From an uncultured Methanosarcinales archaeon (GTDB taxonomy: Archaea > Nanobdellota > Nanobdellia > Woesearchaeales > UBA9642): 28,872 nucleotides of DNA. The first letter of the stretch is position 1. Every line of letters starts with the position of its first letter. The DNA lies in contig CAZQLC010000003.1 of NCBI GenBank assembly GCA_964594025.1, positions 1-28,872 on the forward strand, in the 5' to 3' direction. The position numbers and the translations under genes are program-made. Below, piece by piece: positions 1,056 through 10,357 of this stretch. The notes beneath the pieces were generated by a model. It saw only the letters and a list, made by a program, of their open reading frames with translations. It searched no databases and had not been told where the DNA came from.

Positions 1056-1121
1056 AAAATCTCCTTTATTTTTTTGTTTGCTGTTTTTATTTATTAAGAA
1101 TATAATATTTTATAATTAATA

Positions 1122-1967
1122 TTATTTCAGAACAAAACTTTTCATAGCCTCAACAAAGTCTTCTGCATCACTGAAATAATTATCAAATTCCTCGCCCGAA
1201 ATCTGAGAAATCTCGCCATGAGTTATATTTTTGTTCATATGATAGAACTCTTTCATAATATGAATATATTTTTTGTCTATCAGTCCTGGTTTTGCCATTT
1301 TCTCATTCAGCATATCAGCAACATGCGCCGGGCTTGGGGGAACCTCATTTATGCTCATCAATGCTGCATGGGCAGCATCAACCACAGCCCAGTATAAATC
1401 AACTGTTGCCTGAAGAATATGCCACTTTGAATTATGCAGTGTTCTTGGGGCCCTGTTAAGGTAATTATTTATGGATTCAGGAGAAGGCCTTATCCTTCCT
1501 GTATATAATAAGACTTTAAGGGGATTAAAAAAACCTGTATCCAGCAAAGGAACTCCATCCCTGAGTATATTAACAGCCACAGGATCCCCTGCCCTTACAT
1601 ATTCCCAGAAACTTGAAAACCTCAGGGTTGTTATATGCAGTCTTTTGGACACCCTGGCTATAATATTTTCAACTATGATTTCATAAGTCTGCATGATTTC
1701 CCTTGTAAGCATGAGGGAAACGTCATCAATTATTACCAGTAAATCAACATCATGTTTATTTTCCTTATCCCCGCCTTTTTTACTTCCTTTTTTTTCTGTT
1801 TCATCAAGGTTTTTTCTTGCAGTGCTCCCGAACAATACTATCGCTTTTGCAAAGCCTTTTGCTTCCTTTATGAGCTGTTTTGAGAACTTATATGCAATAT
1901 CCATATCATTATCAGAATACTCAGCATGATGGTCTTCTATATCTCTTTTCTCAACCTTGAAATCCAT
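1122..1967 (-). CDS. Fused minimal nucleotidyltransferase (MNT) and HEPN-like protein, 281 aa
   Basis: Pol-beta motif VLFGSTAR...DVDLLVIIDD, then a helical HEPN-like C-terminus (DLYWAVVDAAHAALM...PPSP...ITHG). Start moved from 2093 to the ATG at 1967: a GAGGTG RBS (AAAGAGGTGGGGA-ATG) precedes it, and the longer frame runs through a TATA box and the structured element. Confidence 0.8.
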   Translation of the reverse strand: MDFKVEKRDIEDHHAEYSDNDMDIAYKFSKQLIKEAKGFAKAIVLFGSTARKNLDETEKKGSKKGGDKENKHDVDLLVIIDDVSLMLTREIMQTYEIIVENIIARVSKRLHITTLRFSSFWEYVRAGDPVAVNILRDGVPLLDTGFFNPLKVLLYTGRIRPSPESINNYLNRAPRTLHNSKWHILQATVDLYWAVVDAAHAALMSINEVPPSPAHVADMLNEKMAKPGLIDKKYIHIMKEFYHMNKNITHGEISQISGEEFDNYFSDAEDFVEAMKSFVLK

Positions 1968-2011
1968 TCCCCACCTCTTTTGAAACAGGATATTTCTTAA
2001 TATTTGTTGAA

Positions 2012-2030
2012 GTTTATAAAATTTTTTATT
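2012..2030 (-). promoter_or_regulatory. Archaeal BRE/TATA promoter for the MNT-HEPN gene
   Basis: Minus strand reads ATAATAAAAAATTTTATAAAC, with TATA TTTATAAA at 2013-2020 about 45 nt upstream of the ATG at 1967. The octamer is palindromic, so it could also act on the plus strand. Confidence 0.55.
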
Positions 2031-2184
2031 ATATGTGGTTTTGGTAAAACCCTGGGCATCTGTGTCGTGAATGGCATTGATTGTTTTTGGCAATCATGGC
2101 ATGGCCAGACGGAACTGACTTTGTTCATATACAAAGTATATGGTTAAAGTCAGTGAAGTAGAACTGGGTTTCACTAAAACATAT
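2031..2184 (+). ncRNA. Putative structured RNA or DNA element, Y-shaped three-way junction, copy 1
   Basis: Closing stems GTTTTGGT/ACTAAAAC and AAACCC/GGGTTT. Long arm 2056-2110. Arm ACTGACTTT (2114-2122)/AAAGTCAGT (2146-2154). GGA and GAA junction linkers. The core is 46/58 identical to copy 2. Strand inferred from G-U pairs. Confidence 0.55.
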
Positions 2185-2195
2185 CCTATTATTTA

Positions 2196-4124
2196 TTACT
2201 CCATTTTTACTCCTGACCACAAAGTCCAGTCCTCTGAAGGGCTGTATGAACCGAAAACATATCTTGGGGGCTCTGTTCTTCCGAAATAAGAATGCTCCAC
2301 ATCACTCCACCTTGGACCTGAACCTCCTCCACCTACAGAAGCTCCCACACTATATACCGGGCTGCCCATTGCCTCCCAAACCTTGGTTAACTGCCTTGTT
2401 GGGCCTTCACCATAAGCCTCAGAATTTATTGCTCCTTTATAGCCTTTCTTTAATAAATATTCAACAGCACTCTGCACAGGCATTACCCCCTGGCCCATAG
2501 GAATATGTGTATGGCCATAACCATAGCCGTCAACAACATGGACATTTCCGATTATGCCGGCTTTCTCCAGTTTTTCAACCTGGTCCATATACCACTTATT
2601 GAACCGTTTGTCAACATCCTCAGGATTTTCCTGTGGCCTTGCTTTGAAATGCTTCCTCCACATTCCCATATGCTGTGTATCTAATGTGGCTTTTATATGG
2701 TCTTTGGCTTCTTTCTCAGCCCCTGATTTTGAATAGCCGTAATTCCTCTGCAGCTTATCAGCCATTTCTTCCCTTGCTTCTGTGATAAAATCTATTAATT
2801 CCTCAGGATGAGCACCATAACCCATTTCAGGGAATATGTTCTCAGGAGCTATATAAATGTCCTTTTTGACAACAGGACTATTGGACTGCTTCATTGCCTC
2901 TATTCCCAAATCAGATAATGAATCAACACTTTTTTCTTTTGCATATCTTTCTATTGTTGTTACATGGTCTCTTGTCAGGGATATATCTTTTGCCTGGGCC
3001 TCATAACCTGCTGCACCCTCTTCCATATATATCAGGTTCTGGTTTATATCATCTAAATTCTTTTTCAGTATTTCCGAAGGATATTTTGTATCCGGGGGAA
3101 TCAATCCCATTAAATCATGGCCGGTCTGTCTCATAAGCTTCCATTTTTCATCCTCAGGCATTGAATCCTCAAGCTTATTATAGAAATCCAGAGCCTTTTT
3201 TATTTTTTTGGCATTTTCTTTCTGCTCTTCATATTTCTGGGAATGAAAAAGTGTCCATCCCTTTGTCTGAGCTTCCTGTGCATCCAGTGTTTCTCTGAAA
3301 AAATATTCTTCAGGAGTCAATATGTCATGAGGATGGTATTTGTTCCATTTTTTTGATTCCTCCTCAATGTCTTTCCATGTCTTGGTTTCTGTCTCAAACC
3401 TCTGCTGCTCAGAATTCCAGACAATCTTCTTTTTCAGGGGGTCTTTTTTTATATCTATATTATTGCCTTCTTCATCAACATAATCCATTGTATCTAAATT
3501 ACGCTTGTATTTGGGGACAGTAACAATCTGGCTTTTTCTTACAGACTTTATTATATCTCCTGTCCTGTCATCAACAAGATATTTTATAGCCCTTTGCTTC
3601 TCTTCTGGATATGCCTCGAAAGAATCTTTCCATTTTCCGTCCTTATTCCATCTGGCATCTTCTATAGTCCTTGGAAATTCACCTGTGTGAACAACAACAG
3701 CTCCACCCTGTGCTGCTTCTGCTGCAAACCTTATGCCTTTCCTGACTTCATCCATTTCTGTTTTTCTCATCTCTTCTGAAAATCCATTCTGCCCCAGGCC
3801 GGAAAGATTCCCGACATTTTGTGCAGGAACATGCACACTGTTTATATTTATCTCATTAGCCCTTGCAAGCTCCCTTAACTCCTCCCTTTGCTCCCTGCCA
3901 TATGACTCAAAACCTGTTCCCGGAACCTGCTGCTGACCTTCAGGAGAGGCTGAAAGCTCTATTGTTGATGCTCCCCTCCTTATCGCACCCTGTACACTGT
4001 CCCTGAAAGCACCTGAGCCCTGGCCTTCTGCCACAGTAGTTCCTATAGAAGAAACAGGAAACTCATCTTTATCCTCATAATAGTTCCTGTCCATAGATCC
4101 AAAATAGCCTGTTTTGAATTTCAT
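2196..4124 (-). CDS. Endonuclease IV / sugar-phosphate isomerase-like TIM-barrel protein (AP_endonuc_2 fold) with a large helical insertion
   Basis: Ordered metal-ligand motifs SVHVP, VVHTGE, APEN, LDTQH, VHVVD, HTHIPMGQG and NSE. About 240 charged residues are inserted between VVHTGE and APEN. Confidence 0.75.
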   Translation of the reverse strand: MKFKTGYFGSMDRNYYEDKDEFPVSSIGTTVAEGQGSGAFRDSVQGAIRRGASTIELSASPEGQQQVPGTGFESYGREQREELRELARANEININSVHVPAQNVGNLSGLGQNGFSEEMRKTEMDEVRKGIRFAAEAAQGGAVVVHTGEFPRTIEDARWNKDGKWKDSFEAYPEEKQRAIKYLVDDRTGDIIKSVRKSQIVTVPKYKRNLDTMDYVDEEGNNIDIKKDPLKKKIVWNSEQQRFETETKTWKDIEEESKKWNKYHPHDILTPEEYFFRETLDAQEAQTKGWTLFHSQKYEEQKENAKKIKKALDFYNKLEDSMPEDEKWKLMRQTGHDLMGLIPPDTKYPSEILKKNLDDINQNLIYMEEGAAGYEAQAKDISLTRDHVTTIERYAKEKSVDSLSDLGIEAMKQSNSPVVKKDIYIAPENIFPEMGYGAHPEELIDFITEAREEMADKLQRNYGYSKSGAEKEAKDHIKATLDTQHMGMWRKHFKARPQENPEDVDKRFNKWYMDQVEKLEKAGIIGNVHVVDGYGYGHTHIPMGQGVMPVQSAVEYLLKKGYKGAINSEAYGEGPTRQLTKVWEAMGSPVYSVGASVGGGGSGPRWSDVEHSYFGRTEPPRYVFGSYSPSEDWTLWSGVKME

Positions 4125-4213
4125 TTTTTATTATATTATTATTTTATATTTTATTTATTGGTTTTTCCGGGTTATATTTATGATTTAAAGTTTAAAAATC
4201 TAACCTTTTATTT

Positions 4214-4771
4214 TTATGGATAGCTTTTCTTTTTTTTATAACTCAAAGACAGATTATCAATTATTTCCTCACCCAGTGTTGCCTTGATGTTATTATAGAG
4301 ATTCTTTTCCTCGGGGGTCCACCTGTCCTCATAATTCTCATAAACAGTTCCTCCTGCTTCATTATTTGTATCTGCACCCTGATAAAAATTAGGACCTTCT
4401 TTAGGCATATCATACTGGGGCCCTGTTTTCGCACTATTATTAGATTCAGTTTCCTTGACAGCATTCTCGAGTTCACTCCCTGAATAACCAAGAGTCTCTT
4501 TTAGTATATCCTCTCTCTTTTTTCTCAATTCTTCAAGCTGTTTTAATCCTTCCTCTTCTTCCTCTGCCAATTCCTCTATGCTGTCTTCCATAAGGTGCTC
4601 TGCTTCCAGTAACTGTGATTCTTTCTTTTTACTGTCTTCTTCCAGCTGTTTTATCTTATTTCTTGTTTCGTCAATCTCTTTCCTTGTATTCTCTTCCAGT
4701 GATTTCAGCTGCTTTATTTTCTCCTCAACTGAACTAATCTCCATATTTTTGTCCTGTTTTATCCTGACCAT
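4214..4771 (-). CDS. Hypothetical acidic coiled-coil protein
   Basis: 185 aa ORF with an E/K-rich heptad pattern over the N-terminal half and a low-complexity tail. Co-oriented with its neighbours. Confidence 0.7.
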   Translation of the reverse strand: MVRIKQDKNMEISSVEEKIKQLKSLEENTRKEIDETRNKIKQLEEDSKKKESQLLEAEHLMEDSIEELAEEEEEGLKQLEELRKKREDILKETLGYSGSELENAVKETESNNSAKTGPQYDMPKEGPNFYQGADTNNEAGGTVYENYEDRWTPEEKNLYNNIKATLGEEIIDNLSLSYKKKKSYP

Positions 4772-4856
4772 TTTAAAGCTATATAATATTATCCAGTATT
4801 ATTCAAAAAAATTATAAAAAGATAAAAATAAATCAAAATAAATCCCTTGGTACAAA

Positions 4857-6350
4857 TCACGACCAATGAAGCAGTCCCCTGCTTTTCTTGAAATTCTTAT
4901 AAGTCTGCCATGCGGCTGTCTTGGCAAGCCCTTTAGCCTCACTCATGTTATTTTTCAGTTTGGTTTTTGAACTTTGTTTTGTGGGAATCAATGCACCAAA
5001 CAAGCTCCCGAAGCCTTTGAATACAGAAAGAAAAGGGTCTGTAGTTTCTTTTAGTGCTTTTGATAATTTCTTTTCTTCTTTTAATTCAGGAAGCTCTTCT
5101 TTTTTGGCTTCAGCCTCTTTAAGATACTGCTCCAGCTCCTCACCCAAAGCCTCCATTGCTGCCTTTACAGAATTGTCAATACTCTTAAGAAGCTCCATAT
5201 CCTCTTCATCTTTCATTTTCTCATACATCTCAATCTGCTCATTTGTCCATGCATAAGCCCTCAGGGTTCCTTCCACTGTTCCCATATGTAGTGGGCCTTT
5301 CTGGTATTCCTGATTATAGCTCATTGTAGGAGATGTTCTGTAAAAAAGATTAAGCAGAACAACTGACTCAAATTTGCCATTTTTATGCGGCCTTCTGGCC
5401 AAAACCTCGATTTCTGTGACTGAAGTCTCAAAAGCCCCTATGATGTCAGCGCTTTTTATATGTTTTTCTTTCATCTGCATTCTCTGTATATTCCTCAGAT
5501 AAGGCTTTACCCAGTTCATGTACATCTTTATGACATCCCAATGCTGCCTTAGATATCTCAGGGTGAATTTCTCCCTTGTATTTAACTCCTTGTATGTTGA
5601 ATCTTTCCAAACCATATATGCTTTTAATTTTCTTTTGAGCACCTCTTTTACTTTCCTGTTAAAGTCCAGTTTATCAACTTCCTTATCAACATCTTCTTTT
5701 TTATCAGGATTCACAGAAAAAAACAAATCGGGCAGGGTAGCAAAACCAACTTCCCTGGCCATGCCGTAAACTGAAGCAGGATTTTTAGAGCCGCCTTCGA
5801 CCATATCTATCCAATAGCCTTTTAATGTAATTTCAGATGCCTCATCTCCTTTCATGCTGTCATCATAATGCTCCAGCTTTTCCTTCAGTATCCTTATTTC
5901 CCTGACTAACTGGAACAGCTCTTTTACCATCTTTCCTATGACTGCCATGAAATTGCTTACTTTATCCTGCTGCATGCCAATCCTCTGCTGTGCAACGCCC
6001 CAGAATGCACTGCTCTCTGCTGCAGAAAAGACATCTGTTATCTTGTCAAAATAAGCCATTTTCCAGCTAAAGCTCAGATGGTCAATCATCCAGAAATAAA
6101 CATCCTCAACTGAAATATTGGGCTCCTGTATAATAATCCTGAATCTTGCTTCAGGTTCAGGAAATCCTGTAGGCTCCTCAAACCATAATGTGTTTTCAGC
6201 AAATTCCTGGTCTGCATGATTTTTATCTATATTTGTCTTGTCTTTTTTTAAGTAATGGCGTTTATCCTTATCAAAATTATAAAGGTCATTATATTGTTTC
6301 TTGATAAAGCCGTATTTTACAAGCCTTTCACCAGCATCATATCTGTACAT
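4857..6350 (-). CDS. Uncharacterised 497 aa protein, largely helical with coiled-coil segments
   Basis: Long ORF with normal codon pattern and an upstream TATA box. No motif I can assign. Confidence 0.8.
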   Translation of the reverse strand: MYRYDAGERLVKYGFIKKQYNDLYNFDKDKRHYLKKDKTNIDKNHADQEFAENTLWFEEPTGFPEPEARFRIIIQEPNISVEDVYFWMIDHLSFSWKMAYFDKITDVFSAAESSAFWGVAQQRIGMQQDKVSNFMAVIGKMVKELFQLVREIRILKEKLEHYDDSMKGDEASEITLKGYWIDMVEGGSKNPASVYGMAREVGFATLPDLFFSVNPDKKEDVDKEVDKLDFNRKVKEVLKRKLKAYMVWKDSTYKELNTREKFTLRYLRQHWDVIKMYMNWVKPYLRNIQRMQMKEKHIKSADIIGAFETSVTEIEVLARRPHKNGKFESVVLLNLFYRTSPTMSYNQEYQKGPLHMGTVEGTLRAYAWTNEQIEMYEKMKDEEDMELLKSIDNSVKAAMEALGEELEQYLKEAEAKKEELPELKEEKKLSKALKETTDPFLSVFKGFGSLFGALIPTKQSSKTKLKNNMSEAKGLAKTAAWQTYKNFKKSRGLLHWS

Positions 6351-6393
6351 TTTTATTCTCAGTGGTTTTTAATATTTTTTTATGGTGTTTATT

Positions 6394-6412
6394 GTTTATA
6401 AAATTTGTTTTT
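6394..6412 (-). promoter_or_regulatory. Archaeal BRE/TATA promoter for the 497 aa gene
   Basis: Minus strand AAAAAACAAATTTTATAAAC with TTTATAAA at 6395-6402. The 13-mer GTTTATAAAATTT is identical to that at 2012-2024. Confidence 0.55.
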
Positions 6413-6419
6413 TGTCCTG

Positions 6420-6559
6420 TTTGTTTTGAAAAAGTGCGTCTGTGCCTTGAATGTCATTGGTTGCCAAAGGCAATCATGGCATAGCCAGACGAAGCTTACC
6501 ACGTTCCCATAGTTTAATGTGTGGTTGTGGTAAGCGAAGCAGTATTTTTTCAAAACAAA
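6420..6559 (+). ncRNA. Putative structured RNA or DNA element, Y-shaped three-way junction, copy 2
   Basis: Perfect 14-bp closing stem TTTGTTTTGAAAAA (6420-6433)/TTTTTCAAAACAAA (6546-6559). Arm GCTTACCAC (6494-6502)/GTGGTAAGC (6527-6535). Two GAA linkers. Followed by T8 (6560-6567). Confidence 0.55.
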
Positions 6560-6595
6560 TTTTTTTTAATACCTATTATGTTAATCAATAATTAA

Positions 6596-8290
6596 TTATT
6601 TATGCTTTTTGTGTAAACCTTTTCTAAGTTTAAGCTCTTTTATATGGCCTAATTTTGTATCTATGAGTTTATCAAGATTATTTGAAACACTTTCCAGTAA
6701 AACAGAAACATGCTCCCCGCCAAGAAAATGAGGCAGTATAACATAATCTGCCCCTGCATCATATAGGGATAATGCATCCTCTACAAAAGAGGCAGTAACC
6801 ATGATTTTGATGTCAGGATTTATTTCCCTTACTTTTTTGATAAGCAGAAGGTTTTCCTCCCTGCCAGGAACAGTGCTTATAATTGTGTGGACATGAGTCC
6901 AGTTTAATCTTTCAATAATTTCAGGGTCAGCAATATCCCCGTAAATGTAATGCGTACCCATTTCATTCAGCCTTCTTATGACATCAGGATTAAAATCAAC
7001 AACAATAAATTTTTCATTTTTATTCTTAAAATGGTTCATTATTGAGTATCCTATCCTGTCAGCCCCGATAAGAACCCAGCTATAATCATAATTTTCTCCT
7101 GAAGAAACAAGCTCCCTTTTATTGGGGTTTATCTTTTCTATAAACCTGAACTTGCTTCCTATATTATAATAGAGCCAGTTGTCAAACTTTATATAATAAG
7201 AGGCAACAGACATTGTAAAGATGGCTACAAATAATATCAGGGAGAATATATGCTGGTTTATATGGTTGAGGGCAAGACCCTGCACAGCTATTATCAGTGA
7301 AAACTCTGAAACCTCTGCCAGTGATATGGATGAATTAAAAGAAGTTCTTTTTTTATAGCCAAAAAGGCTGCAGATAATGATAGTAATAAAAGGCTTAATT
7401 AATAATACAACAAAAGAAAAAATCAGAAAAGGAATTATTATTCTCTTTAATTCTGAAAACATCAGCTGCAATCCTATGGAAACAAAAAACAAGACTGAAA
7501 AAAAGTCCTTCAAAGGATTCACCCTGCCGATTATCTCAAAATTATAAGGCAGGTTACCTAAAGTTACTCCTGCAATAAATGCCCCCACAACTATGGAAAA
7601 TCCTATGTAATTAAAAAGGACTGCAAAAAGGAAGCATACAGTTAAGCTCGCAAGAAACAACAACTGCTGTGTATCTGCTGCTTTCTCAAATATTTTTGGG
7701 AATATAAACTTGCTTAGCAGAACAGCCCCTATAATTATTAACAACGCCTTGAATATTGACCCCAGAATAGGAAAAGCACTGAATTCATTTATCCTGTATA
7801 ATATAGTCAATGCAAAAATTGCCAGGATGTCCTGCATAATCAAAATACCCACAACAATCCTTCCATGCAGGGTCTCAAGCTCCTTCTTGTCCGAAAGCAG
7901 CTTCACAACAACCATGGTGCTGCTGAAAGCAACAAATAACCCTATATAAACAGAAATAATATAATTATAATTCAAGCCTAAACTTATAAAAAAACCTATA
8001 ATAAACATAATCAAAAACTGCATTATTGTGCCAAAGGTGGCAATAGAGCCGATTTCCCTTAATCTGCTGAAGTCCAGCTCCAGGCCCACAATAAACAAAA
8101 GGAAAGCAATTCCCAGTTCAGACAATGTGGATATAACATTAGAATCTGTAATCAACCCCAAAACAGGACCAAGGATTATGCCTACAATAATATATATCGG
8201 TATTAACGGCTGCCTGAGAACTTTTGCTATATATCCTCCTATTGTAGCAACAATTATAATCAGGGCAATGTCATAAAAGATGTTCTGCAT
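6596..8290 (-). CDS. CPA2-family (Kef-type) cation:proton antiporter with a C-terminal RCK/TrkA-N domain
   Basis: Many TM helices with LLFIVGLELD, AFSSTMVVVKLL, GILIMQDI and GAFIAG motifs. C-terminal Rossmann-like domain LIGADRIG...VVDFNP...YGD. Confidence 0.9.
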   Translation of the reverse strand: MQNIFYDIALIIIVATIGGYIAKVLRQPLIPIYIIVGIILGPVLGLITDSNVISTLSELGIAFLLFIVGLELDFSRLREIGSIATFGTIMQFLIMFIIGFFISLGLNYNYIISVYIGLFVAFSSTMVVVKLLSDKKELETLHGRIVVGILIMQDILAIFALTILYRINEFSAFPILGSIFKALLIIIGAVLLSKFIFPKIFEKAADTQQLLFLASLTVCFLFAVLFNYIGFSIVVGAFIAGVTLGNLPYNFEIIGRVNPLKDFFSVLFFVSIGLQLMFSELKRIIIPFLIFSFVVLLIKPFITIIICSLFGYKKRTSFNSSISLAEVSEFSLIIAVQGLALNHINQHIFSLILFVAIFTMSVASYYIKFDNWLYYNIGSKFRFIEKINPNKRELVSSGENYDYSWVLIGADRIGYSIMNHFKNKNEKFIVVDFNPDVIRRLNEMGTHYIYGDIADPEIIERLNWTHVHTIISTVPGREENLLLIKKVREINPDIKIMVTASFVEDALSLYDAGADYVILPHFLGGEHVSVLLESVSNNLDKLIDTKLGHIKELKLRKGLHKKHK

Positions 8291-8460: not shown

Positions 8461-10357
8461 ATGTTATCTATAATCTACCTGAGTATTATTCTTTCTTTCC
8501 TAGTTTCCATAGGCTTATTAGTATATCTGCTAAAACAGGACCAGGGGACAAAAGAGGTAAAAAATATTTCATTATTAATACAGGAAGGCGCAACCACTTT
8601 CCTTAACAGGCAGTATATAGGTGTTGCAATTTTTGTTGTTTCTTTTTGTTTTATAATATTTTTCACACTCCATTCTTTTCATCTTATTATTGCTTTTATA
8701 CTGGGGGCATTGTTCTCAGCACTCGCAGGAAGATTAGGAATGACAGCAGCCACCAAATCAAATGGAAGGACTGCATGGGCATGTGAAAAATCTGAGGAAA
8801 GAGGAATGAAAATAGCATTCTTTTCCGGCTCTGTTATGTCTTTTTTAGTAATAGGCCTCAGCCTTCTGGGAATAACTGTATTATTTTATATTTTTGAAGA
8901 TGCATCTATTTTATTTGGATTTGGATTTGGTGCAAGCAGCATTGCATTATTTGCAAGAGTAGCCGGCGGGATATATACTAAAAGTGCTGATATTGGCGCT
9001 GATTTAGTCGGCAAGGTGGAAAAGAAACTTCCTGAGGATGACCCAAGAAACCCTGCTGTTATAGCAGACCTCGTTGGAGATAATGTGGGTGATGTGGCAG
9101 GAATGGGTGCTGACCTTTTTGAAAGCTATTCTGATGCTATCATAGCAGCAATAGCAATAGGCTCTGTTGCAGGGGCATTCTTTAATTCATTACTTCCTTT
9201 AGTTATAGCCTCTCTCGGGGTTTTTAGCTCTATACTCACAATACCTTTTGTAAAAGGCAAGAATGCATTGACAAAAGGGATAATAATATCTTCTGCATTA
9301 ATGGTTATCTTTTCATTCATAATTATAAGAGCATTGTTCCAGATAGAATTATTTTACTGTATACTTACAGGATTGGTTTATTGCTATATATTATACATCT
9401 TATAATTTTTCCCCTACAAGAGAAATAGTAAAAGAAGCAAAAACAGGCGCTGCCACTGCTGTACTTGCGGGCCTTGGGCAGGGAATGCTGTCCTCATTCA
9501 TACCTATTATAGTCGTGTCAATCTCAATTTTAGTTTCATATTATTTTGCATCCATCTATGGGATTGCAATAGCTGCTGTGGGCATGCTAAGCACTCTCGG
9601 AATTACACTTGCTGTTGACAGTTATGGGCCTGTTGTTGATAATGCTGAAGGCATTGCAGAAATGGCCAAACTGGGGAAAAAGACAAAAGAAAGGGCAAGC
9701 AGGCTTGATGCAATAGGCAATTCAACTGCAGCCCTGGGCAAGGGGTTTGCAATAGGCTCAGCTGCCCTTACTGCACTTGTATTATTTGTGATTTATTCAG
9801 AAAAAATAGGCTTGGAAACAATAAGCATAACAAATCCTAATGTTGTCGCAGGCCTTCTTATAGGGGCGGTCATACCATTTATATTCTCATCAATGACAAT
9901 AAAAGCTGTAAGTTCCACTGCAGCAAAAGTGATTGAAGAAACAAGAAAGCAGTTTGAGGAAAGAATACAAAAAGGAGAAAAACCCCTTTACAAAAGATGC
10001 ATCTCAATTGTGACTGACTCAGCTCTGAAAAAAATGTCTTTGCCTACATTGCTTGCTGTATTTTTTCCAATAATAATAGGGATTTCCCTGGGTAAAGCTG
10101 CCCTTGGTGGATTTCTTGCAGGAAGCATCAGCACTGGTTTTGTACTTGCTGTAACAATGGCAAATTCAGGAGGAGCCCTTGATAATGCAAAGAAATATAT
10201 TGAGGATATTGAAAACAAAAAAGGCACGCCATGGCATAGCGCGGCTGTGGTTGGTGATACTGTCGGCGACCCACTGAAGGATTGTGCCGGGCCAAGCCTG
10301 AATATCCTGCTTAAATTAATGACTATTGTTTCACTCGTTTTTTTCCCTTTATTTTAA
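8461..10357 (+). pseudogene. hppA: Membrane-bound ion-pumping pyrophosphatase (K+-dependent type), split by a +1 frameshift near 9376
   Basis: Fragment 1 has GGIYTKSADIGADLVGKVE...PEDDPRNPAVIADLVGDNVGDVAGMGADLFESY. Frame 2 resumes at about 9377 with FIAIYYTSYNFSPTREIVKEAKTGAAT and continues through DSYGPVVDNAEGIAEM, DAIGNSTAALGKGFAIGS and [10 protein letters not shown]. Could be a sequencing or assembly error rather than a true pseudogene. Confidence 0.85.

Follow-up and report, generated by a model that had tools for sequence, protein, structure and literature searches.

A probable IS5-type MITE family with a conserved three-way-junction interior in compact archaeal genomes

The window considered here, a stretch of 28,872 nucleotides, contains two copies of a non-coding element of about 140 nt (Table 1), both of which lie just past the 3' ends of genes. 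The block around and between the copies comprises a nucleotidyltransferase, a 642-aa endonuclease-IV-like protein, a 185-aa ORF and a 497-aa ORF. Positions 1100-7600 have no DNA-level counterpart in a congener (G001) except the elements themselves and represent a variable region framed by two MITEs that share one orientation and belong to different subfamilies. Beyond this region, at 8461-9405, a 314-aa ORF covers no more than positions 2-319 of the H+-pyrophosphatase profile, which is 645 positions long, and this H+-pyrophosphatase-like gene may be split or frameshifted.

Table 1 Features of the two window copies and of the permuted copies in other genomes
Feature	Coordinates	Strand	Remarks
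Probable MITE, copy 1 (subfamily 1)	2037..2181	+	CM match 141.8 bits; alignment of 11 copies
Left terminal inverted repeat (5' arm of P1), copy 1	2037..2054	+	Pairs with 2164-2181; terminus type GGYT...AAAA, as IS5-type IS ends
Arm P2, copy 1	2057..2111	+	Base CGUCUG-U-GCC / GGC-CAGACG, sequence-conserved
Junction strand J2/3 (NA, here GA), copy 1	2112..2113	+	A conserved in order-wide alignment
Arm P3 with conserved GUUC/GGUU internal motif, copy 1	2114..2154	+	Both-side changes in 15/17 pairs; 96% of cells paired
Junction strand J3/1 (GNARUAG...), copy 1	2155..2163	+	Conserved over 19 genomes
Right terminal inverted repeat (3' arm of P1), copy 1	2164..2181	+	Pairs with 2037-2054
Probable MITE, copy 2 (subfamily 2)	6419..6560	+	CM match 148.3 bits; fold; alignment
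Left terminal inverted repeat, copy 2	6419..6435	+	Fold and alignment
Arm P2, copy 2	6437..6491	+	Fold and alignment
Arm P3, copy 2	6494..6535	+	Fold and alignment
Junction strand J3/1, copy 2	6536..6543	+	Fold and alignment
Right terminal inverted repeat, copy 2	6544..6560	+	Fold and alignment
TATA-like box, flanking DNA	2013..2021		Outside element, 16 nt from copy 1
TATA-like box, flanking DNA	6395..6403		Adjoins copy 2
Permuted copies, G060	G060:C3:30357-30454, 34623-34718		L090
Permuted copies, G098			L126-L128
Permuted copy, G027	G027:C1:268920-269026		L046

An earlier, sequence-only reading of the window had described a gapless match between the two copies, a shared three-way-junction architecture, and P3 stems whose differences are all compensated. 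Analysis of the copies confirmed these descriptions. Positions 2056-2113 and 6436-6493 align without gaps at 46/58 identity, and the + strand of both copies folds into a closing stem and two arms that form the same three-way junction, with an MFE of -51.4 kcal/mol for copy 1 (z -5.2 against shuffled sequences) and -63.5 kcal/mol for copy 2 (z -9.0 against shuffled sequences). The minus strand folds 14-17 kcal/mol more weakly. Five positions differ between the P3 stems of the two copies and all five are compensated, while the GUUC/GGUU motif and the junction linkers GRA and GAAG are kept in both, as had been claimed for the GTTC/GGTT segment and the linkers. The 'NTGA bulge' that was placed in P2 survives as one possible register only, since a second register of the AUGGC repeats fits equally well.

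The description of a duplicated, two-copy element had to be revised in both number and limits. With BLAST and a covariance model derived from the copies of this genome, 11 copies were located, spread over 10 contigs of the assembly to which the window belongs (G000, 845 kb); two of the copies lie at contig ends, and the limits in Table 1 were set by alignment of these 11 copies. Their neighbour genes are unrelated to one another (a nucleotidyltransferase, an endonuclease-IV-like protein, a Na/H exchanger and others). The congener G001 carries 14 copies. The search for homologues with a covariance model, which the sequence-only reading had suggested, was productive also beyond the genus: the element is present in 25 of the 151 sampled genomes of the order, representing 25 genera and different families with up to at least 21 copies each, and in 0 of approximately 130 sampled genomes from other orders of the class. 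A loose P2 pattern applied to all species genomes and viral contigs gave true matches only in Woesearchaeota-type MAGs, and its bacterial and viral matches fail the covariance model. In four salt-marsh metagenome runs the element is covered 2-9 times more deeply than its flanks; contigs break at copies, and metagenome contigs continue into the flanks of other copies.

Several copies are irregular. At G000:C19:9273-9415 the 5' arm is unpaired with its own 3' arm, and the 5' arm of a truncated contig-end copy (G000:C8:19184-19255) pairs with the 3' arm of the C19 copy, indicating either an assembly chimera across the repeat or recombination between copies. Solo repeats at G074:C65:23617, G074:C72:6558 and G047:C16 were considered as autonomous elements and rejected, as they represent truncated copies or a contig end; in the two truncated remnants of G074, the left repeat and roughly the first 20 nt of P2 run into unrelated sequence.

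Comparison of the two congeners demonstrated that the element is mobile. Among the 13 G001 copies with flanks, 3 are orthologous in G000 and 9 face contiguous empty sites, whose flanks are 82-89% identical to those of the filled G001 sites. A perfect 10-bp direct repeat is found at G001:C22 and 9-10-bp repeats are found at two further filled sites. Perfect 9-bp target duplications accompany 6 of 7 copies in G111 and 5 of 6 in G047, where the copies are near-identical and young. Because of the copy number, the empty sites and the 9-bp duplications, the element is to be viewed as mobile rather than as a pair of RNA genes. The idea of a private duplicated ncRNA locus accordingly gives way to a dispersed mobile element with empty sites, target duplications and IS-type ends. 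As is characteristic of MITEs, the element is short, non-coding and dispersed, has terminal inverted repeats and a duplication of fixed length, is polymorphic for presence and absence and shares its ends with an IS. The G111 loci (L066-L072) are larger units of approximately 284-335 bp with 40-bp inverted repeats, which contain the junction module and an extra P2-like hairpin and all display 9-bp duplications; 3 of the 7 have a further 51-nt insertion. No target duplication is recognisable at either window copy and no empty allele of them was seen in the contigs of the four metagenome runs; the window copies are probably older than the young copies with clean duplications.

The arms of P1 are terminal inverted repeats of 15-19 bp. 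The duplex energy of a copy's own arms averages -16 kcal/mol versus -6 kcal/mol for cross-paired arms of different copies, and P1 mismatches are without strand bias (G-U 14, A-C 15). The sequence-only reading had noted that the P1 stems diverge yet still pair. Their pairing is real; their covariation follows from P1 being the terminal inverted repeat recognised by a transposase, probably of the IS5 family. A partner IS was sought by examining inverted repeats around the DDE_Tnp_1 genes of the order. Genome G146 contains a 910-bp IS (G146:C21:62-971) with a 280-aa DDE_Tnp_1 protein and a 9-bp duplication. The protein matches PF01609 (3.8e-21, 76 bits, cut-off 23), and its best NCBIfam match is transpos_IS5_2 (4e-34, 118 bits, under the 140-bit cut-off of that model). 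The 13-bp repeat of this IS recurs unchanged in a MITE copy of G146 (G146:C11; 13-14 nt at 100%). Homologous ISs were detected in 21 of the 151 genomes. Related ISs in G047, G060, G162 and G128 have the repeats GGCTCTGTAGAAAAT, GGTTGTGTAGAAAAAGT and GGCTGCGTTGAAAAT with perfect 9-bp duplications, and the P1 arms of the G000 and G001 copies have the same termini as these ISs, notably GGCTGCGTTGAAAAT. The partner ISs form a clade in Woesearchaeota, are approximately 900 bp long, come from the same order, and have GGC termini and a 9-bp duplication as in the IS903 group of the ISfinder table of the IS5 family. The repeat of IS903 (IS5 family; IS903B) is GGCTTTGTTGAATAAATC with a 9-bp duplication (PMC10569121), and its target motif is WTTYA-N9-TRAAW (PMC2577343). 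Inspection by eye of the flanks of the 9-bp duplications did not make this motif evident.

No copy of the fold lies within the IS loci, and antisense pairing of the core with the IS sequences does not go beyond the repeats. Since the ends are shared with IS5-type ISs that lack the fold, the element is best regarded as a MITE moved in trans, and since only the ends are common to both, the core is not an IS remnant. An IS5-family transposase was not found in the assemblies G000, G001, G074, G111 and G158, which are MAGs. DDE_Tnp_1 (PF01609) is not enriched with the element (8 of 25 carriers versus 49 of 126 non-carriers), nor does the G146-type transposase demonstrate any co-occurrence enrichment. 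The missing transposase and the absent co-occurrence may be due to poor assembly of ISs in MAGs or to loss of the partner. The sole DDE gene of G111 was rejected as a partner, being an ISAs1-family fragment without matching ends, and a degenerate repeat search in the AT-rich DNA of G000 yielded pure noise.

The interior of the element was investigated in a core alignment of 63 distinct copies from 19 genomes. With copies that were fitted to the model and are not mutually independent, the proportion of paired cells in P2/P3 is 93.7%, while shuffles reach 73% and slid partners about 35%, and changes on both sides occur in 32 of the 38 core pairs. Between orthologous copies, 15 of 21 changed pairs remain paired. 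Where the consensus of a column is Watson-Crick, genome-level counts give 82 G-U variants and 26 A-C variants, and therefore one strand (+) is the selected one. The compensatory changes and their restriction to one strand thus uphold the earlier claim that the fold is under selection. Judged from sequence, these patterns point to selection on a folded single strand, which could be RNA or single-stranded DNA alike. Conservation in the core extends to the P2 base (CGUCUG followed by a bulged U and GCC), to the three junction strands (N, NA and GNARUAG) and to the P3 GUUC/GGUU motif; the apical parts of P2 and P3 are variable, with insertions of up to about 90 nt. GC-rich expansions of 40-90 nt in the apical P2/P3 loops were observed in copies from G055 (L135-L137), G158 (L139, L140) and G091 (L138), in which the junction and lower stems are still conserved.

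Three genomes (G060, G098 and G027) hold a circularly permuted junction, in which a 3-5-nt loop caps P1 and the open, extended P2 (25-45 bp) carries the ends. No IS5-type ends or clear duplications were seen in the permuted forms. The gene beside the permuted G060 copy was considered as a transposase and rejected, as it is GINS51. The one-strand covariation together with the permuted forms is beyond what transposition alone explains. The statement of the sequence-only reading that the element corresponds to no known RNA family was also substantiated. A search of the window against Rfam returned 0 matches at gathering score and only noise of at most 17 bits at E<=10, and ARAGORN detected no tRNA in the window. 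A hammerhead was rejected on the absence of the CUGANGA / GAAA / NUH core and of any RF00008/RF00163-type match. Inspection by eye gave no fit to 5S rRNA, to tRNA or permuted tRNA, to H/ACA or C/D sRNAs, to a K-turn or to the bulge-helix-bulge motif. The results support a core of unusually strong conservation that matches no catalogued RNA family. It is conceivable, albeit unlikely, that this core is a new functional RNA class riding IS5-type MITEs in Woesearchaeota, such as a module for self-cleavage or processing or a scaffold for protein binding, selected independently of the flanking repeats; such independence would then explain the circularly permuted forms.

The position of the element relative to promoters is regular. 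In nine pairs of filled and empty sites, 20-27 nt separate the start codon of a divergent gene from a TATA box, and the element follows after a further 12-17 nt. Empty sites retain this box, which there suits the leaderless gene next to it; the box is therefore part of the target DNA rather than of the element. In seven genomes, 27 of 36 copies have a TATA-like heptamer 10-19 nt from either element end, and from this spacing it follows that the original 9-bp target began about 6 nt from the TATA box. Spacers onto which gene starts open are preferred: those of 58 classified copies are divergent (23), tandem (32) or convergent (3). Nearly all copies in the window's genus point away from the adjacent gene start; outside this genus, sense and antisense orientations are equal. 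The proximity to TATA boxes agrees with a target preference, or with selection acting where spacers are very short, and does not agree with a promoter borne by the element.

Taken together, we hold it highly probable that the element is a non-autonomous MITE of approximately 140 bp with IS5-type ends, moved in trans and containing a conserved junction interior. An alternative is a stand-alone family of small-RNA genes that act in trans, in which every gene has a TATA promoter and an oligo-T terminator of its own and the copies arose by duplication inside the genome. This would be in agreement with the TATA-like box located 13-19 nt upstream of most copies in the genus, the T-run in the 3' arm, the selected + strand fold and the lack of an Rfam match. 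However, the TATA box also stands in empty sites, only 3 of 13 copies are syntenic between the congeners, and outside the genus the box occurs at either end of randomly oriented copies; the 9-bp target duplications and termini identical to IS ends likewise render such a gene family improbable. A decayed local duplication, or a plain terminator hairpin of no broader significance, had been left as an alternative by the earlier reading and could draw on the position of the window copies just past gene 3' ends, but this is made scarcely credible by covariation far above the controls and by the occurrence of the element in 25 genomes, which come from different families and contain up to at least 21 copies each.

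Other modes of mobility were also weighed. A single-stranded-DNA hairpin repeat of the REP/REPIN kind, mobilised by a Y1 HUH (RAYT/IS200-type) transposase, would suit a strand-specific fold as a single-stranded DNA substrate, and Y1_Tnp genes do exist in G111 and G146. We judge it very improbable, as such elements leave their target unduplicated, whereas 9-bp duplications regularly accompany the present one; moreover, the termini match DDE-type IS5 ends, and Y1_Tnp was not found in the element carriers G000, G001 and G047. A SINE- or retrozyme-like retroelement, whose folded RNA is copied by reverse transcriptase (RT), would account for one-strand selection on the fold, could give rise to permuted forms through a circular intermediate, and could draw on the RT gene of G000 and G001. 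Its likelihood appears smaller still, given that RT was not found in G038 (15 copies, 99% complete) or G027, that the duplications have a constant length of 9 bp and that the inverted termini match a DNA transposon. The RT gene itself is a 361-aa ORF (RVT_1, 9e-28; G000:C44:6092-6709, L060, and G001:C3:73018-73638, L061), which among four genomes tested is limited to the window's genus and may belong to a diversity-generating retroelement.

According to the MITE reading, a DDE transposase supplied in trans would cut the target with a 9-bp stagger and insert the element, mostly in short promoter-bearing spacers at a distance of about 6 nt plus the 9-bp duplication from a TATA-like box. The three-way-junction module between the repeats, which is not IS-derived, is kept by compensatory change on the + strand only. 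It presumably works in folded single-stranded form, most probably as RNA produced by read-through or divergent transcription, and may help the element persist or move. The counterpoint to this scheme is that a plain MITE needs no conserved interior.

IS5-derived MITEs of the IS903 group, such as MITEAba12 of Acinetobacter, are short, non-coding and intergenic. The present element resembles them in its 15-19-bp repeats starting with GGC, its 9-bp duplication, its dispersal between genes and the sharing of its ends with an autonomous IS encoding a DDE_Tnp_1 transposase. It differs from them in that its interior is no IS remnant and in that the junction is conserved over the order while the repeats vary per genome. 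Unlike at IS903, WTTYA-N9-TRAAW is not evident at the element, and a TATA-like box is positioned about 6 nt from the duplication. Stable folds, compensatory changes and possible co-transcription with adjacent genes are also features of the dispersed intergenic repeats of bacteria (ERIC/IRU, Correia/NEMIS, RUP, BOX and bcr1). The element is likewise dispersed, intergenic and stably folding with compensatory changes, but those repeats form one long hairpin while the archaeal (DPANN) element forms a three-way junction and has permuted versions. The compact junction with conserved junction nucleotides, variable peripheral loops with expansion segments and natural permutation also recalls IStrons and the small self-cleaving ribozymes that mobile elements carry (hammerhead types I-III, twister), a likeness that serves only as a lead to how the element might work. 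Unlike the hammerhead, the element has no CUGANGA, GAAA or NUH, and no Rfam ribozyme model matches it.

What was supposed to be a private ncRNA has become an archaeal MITE family with an identified partner, probably of the IS5 family, and to our knowledge few MITEs of DPANN archaea have been characterised. The MITE family is well supported and its kind is known; out of the ordinary is the conserved, strand-specific three-way-junction interior. It is unusual that the conserved part is the folded interior and not the transposase-binding ends. The core would constitute a new RNA class if shown to be an active RNA; otherwise the family serves as a warning that covariation in a repeat need not imply an RNA gene. 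The fixed short distance of the element to TATA boxes in these very compact genomes means that promoters may be reshaped by its insertion.
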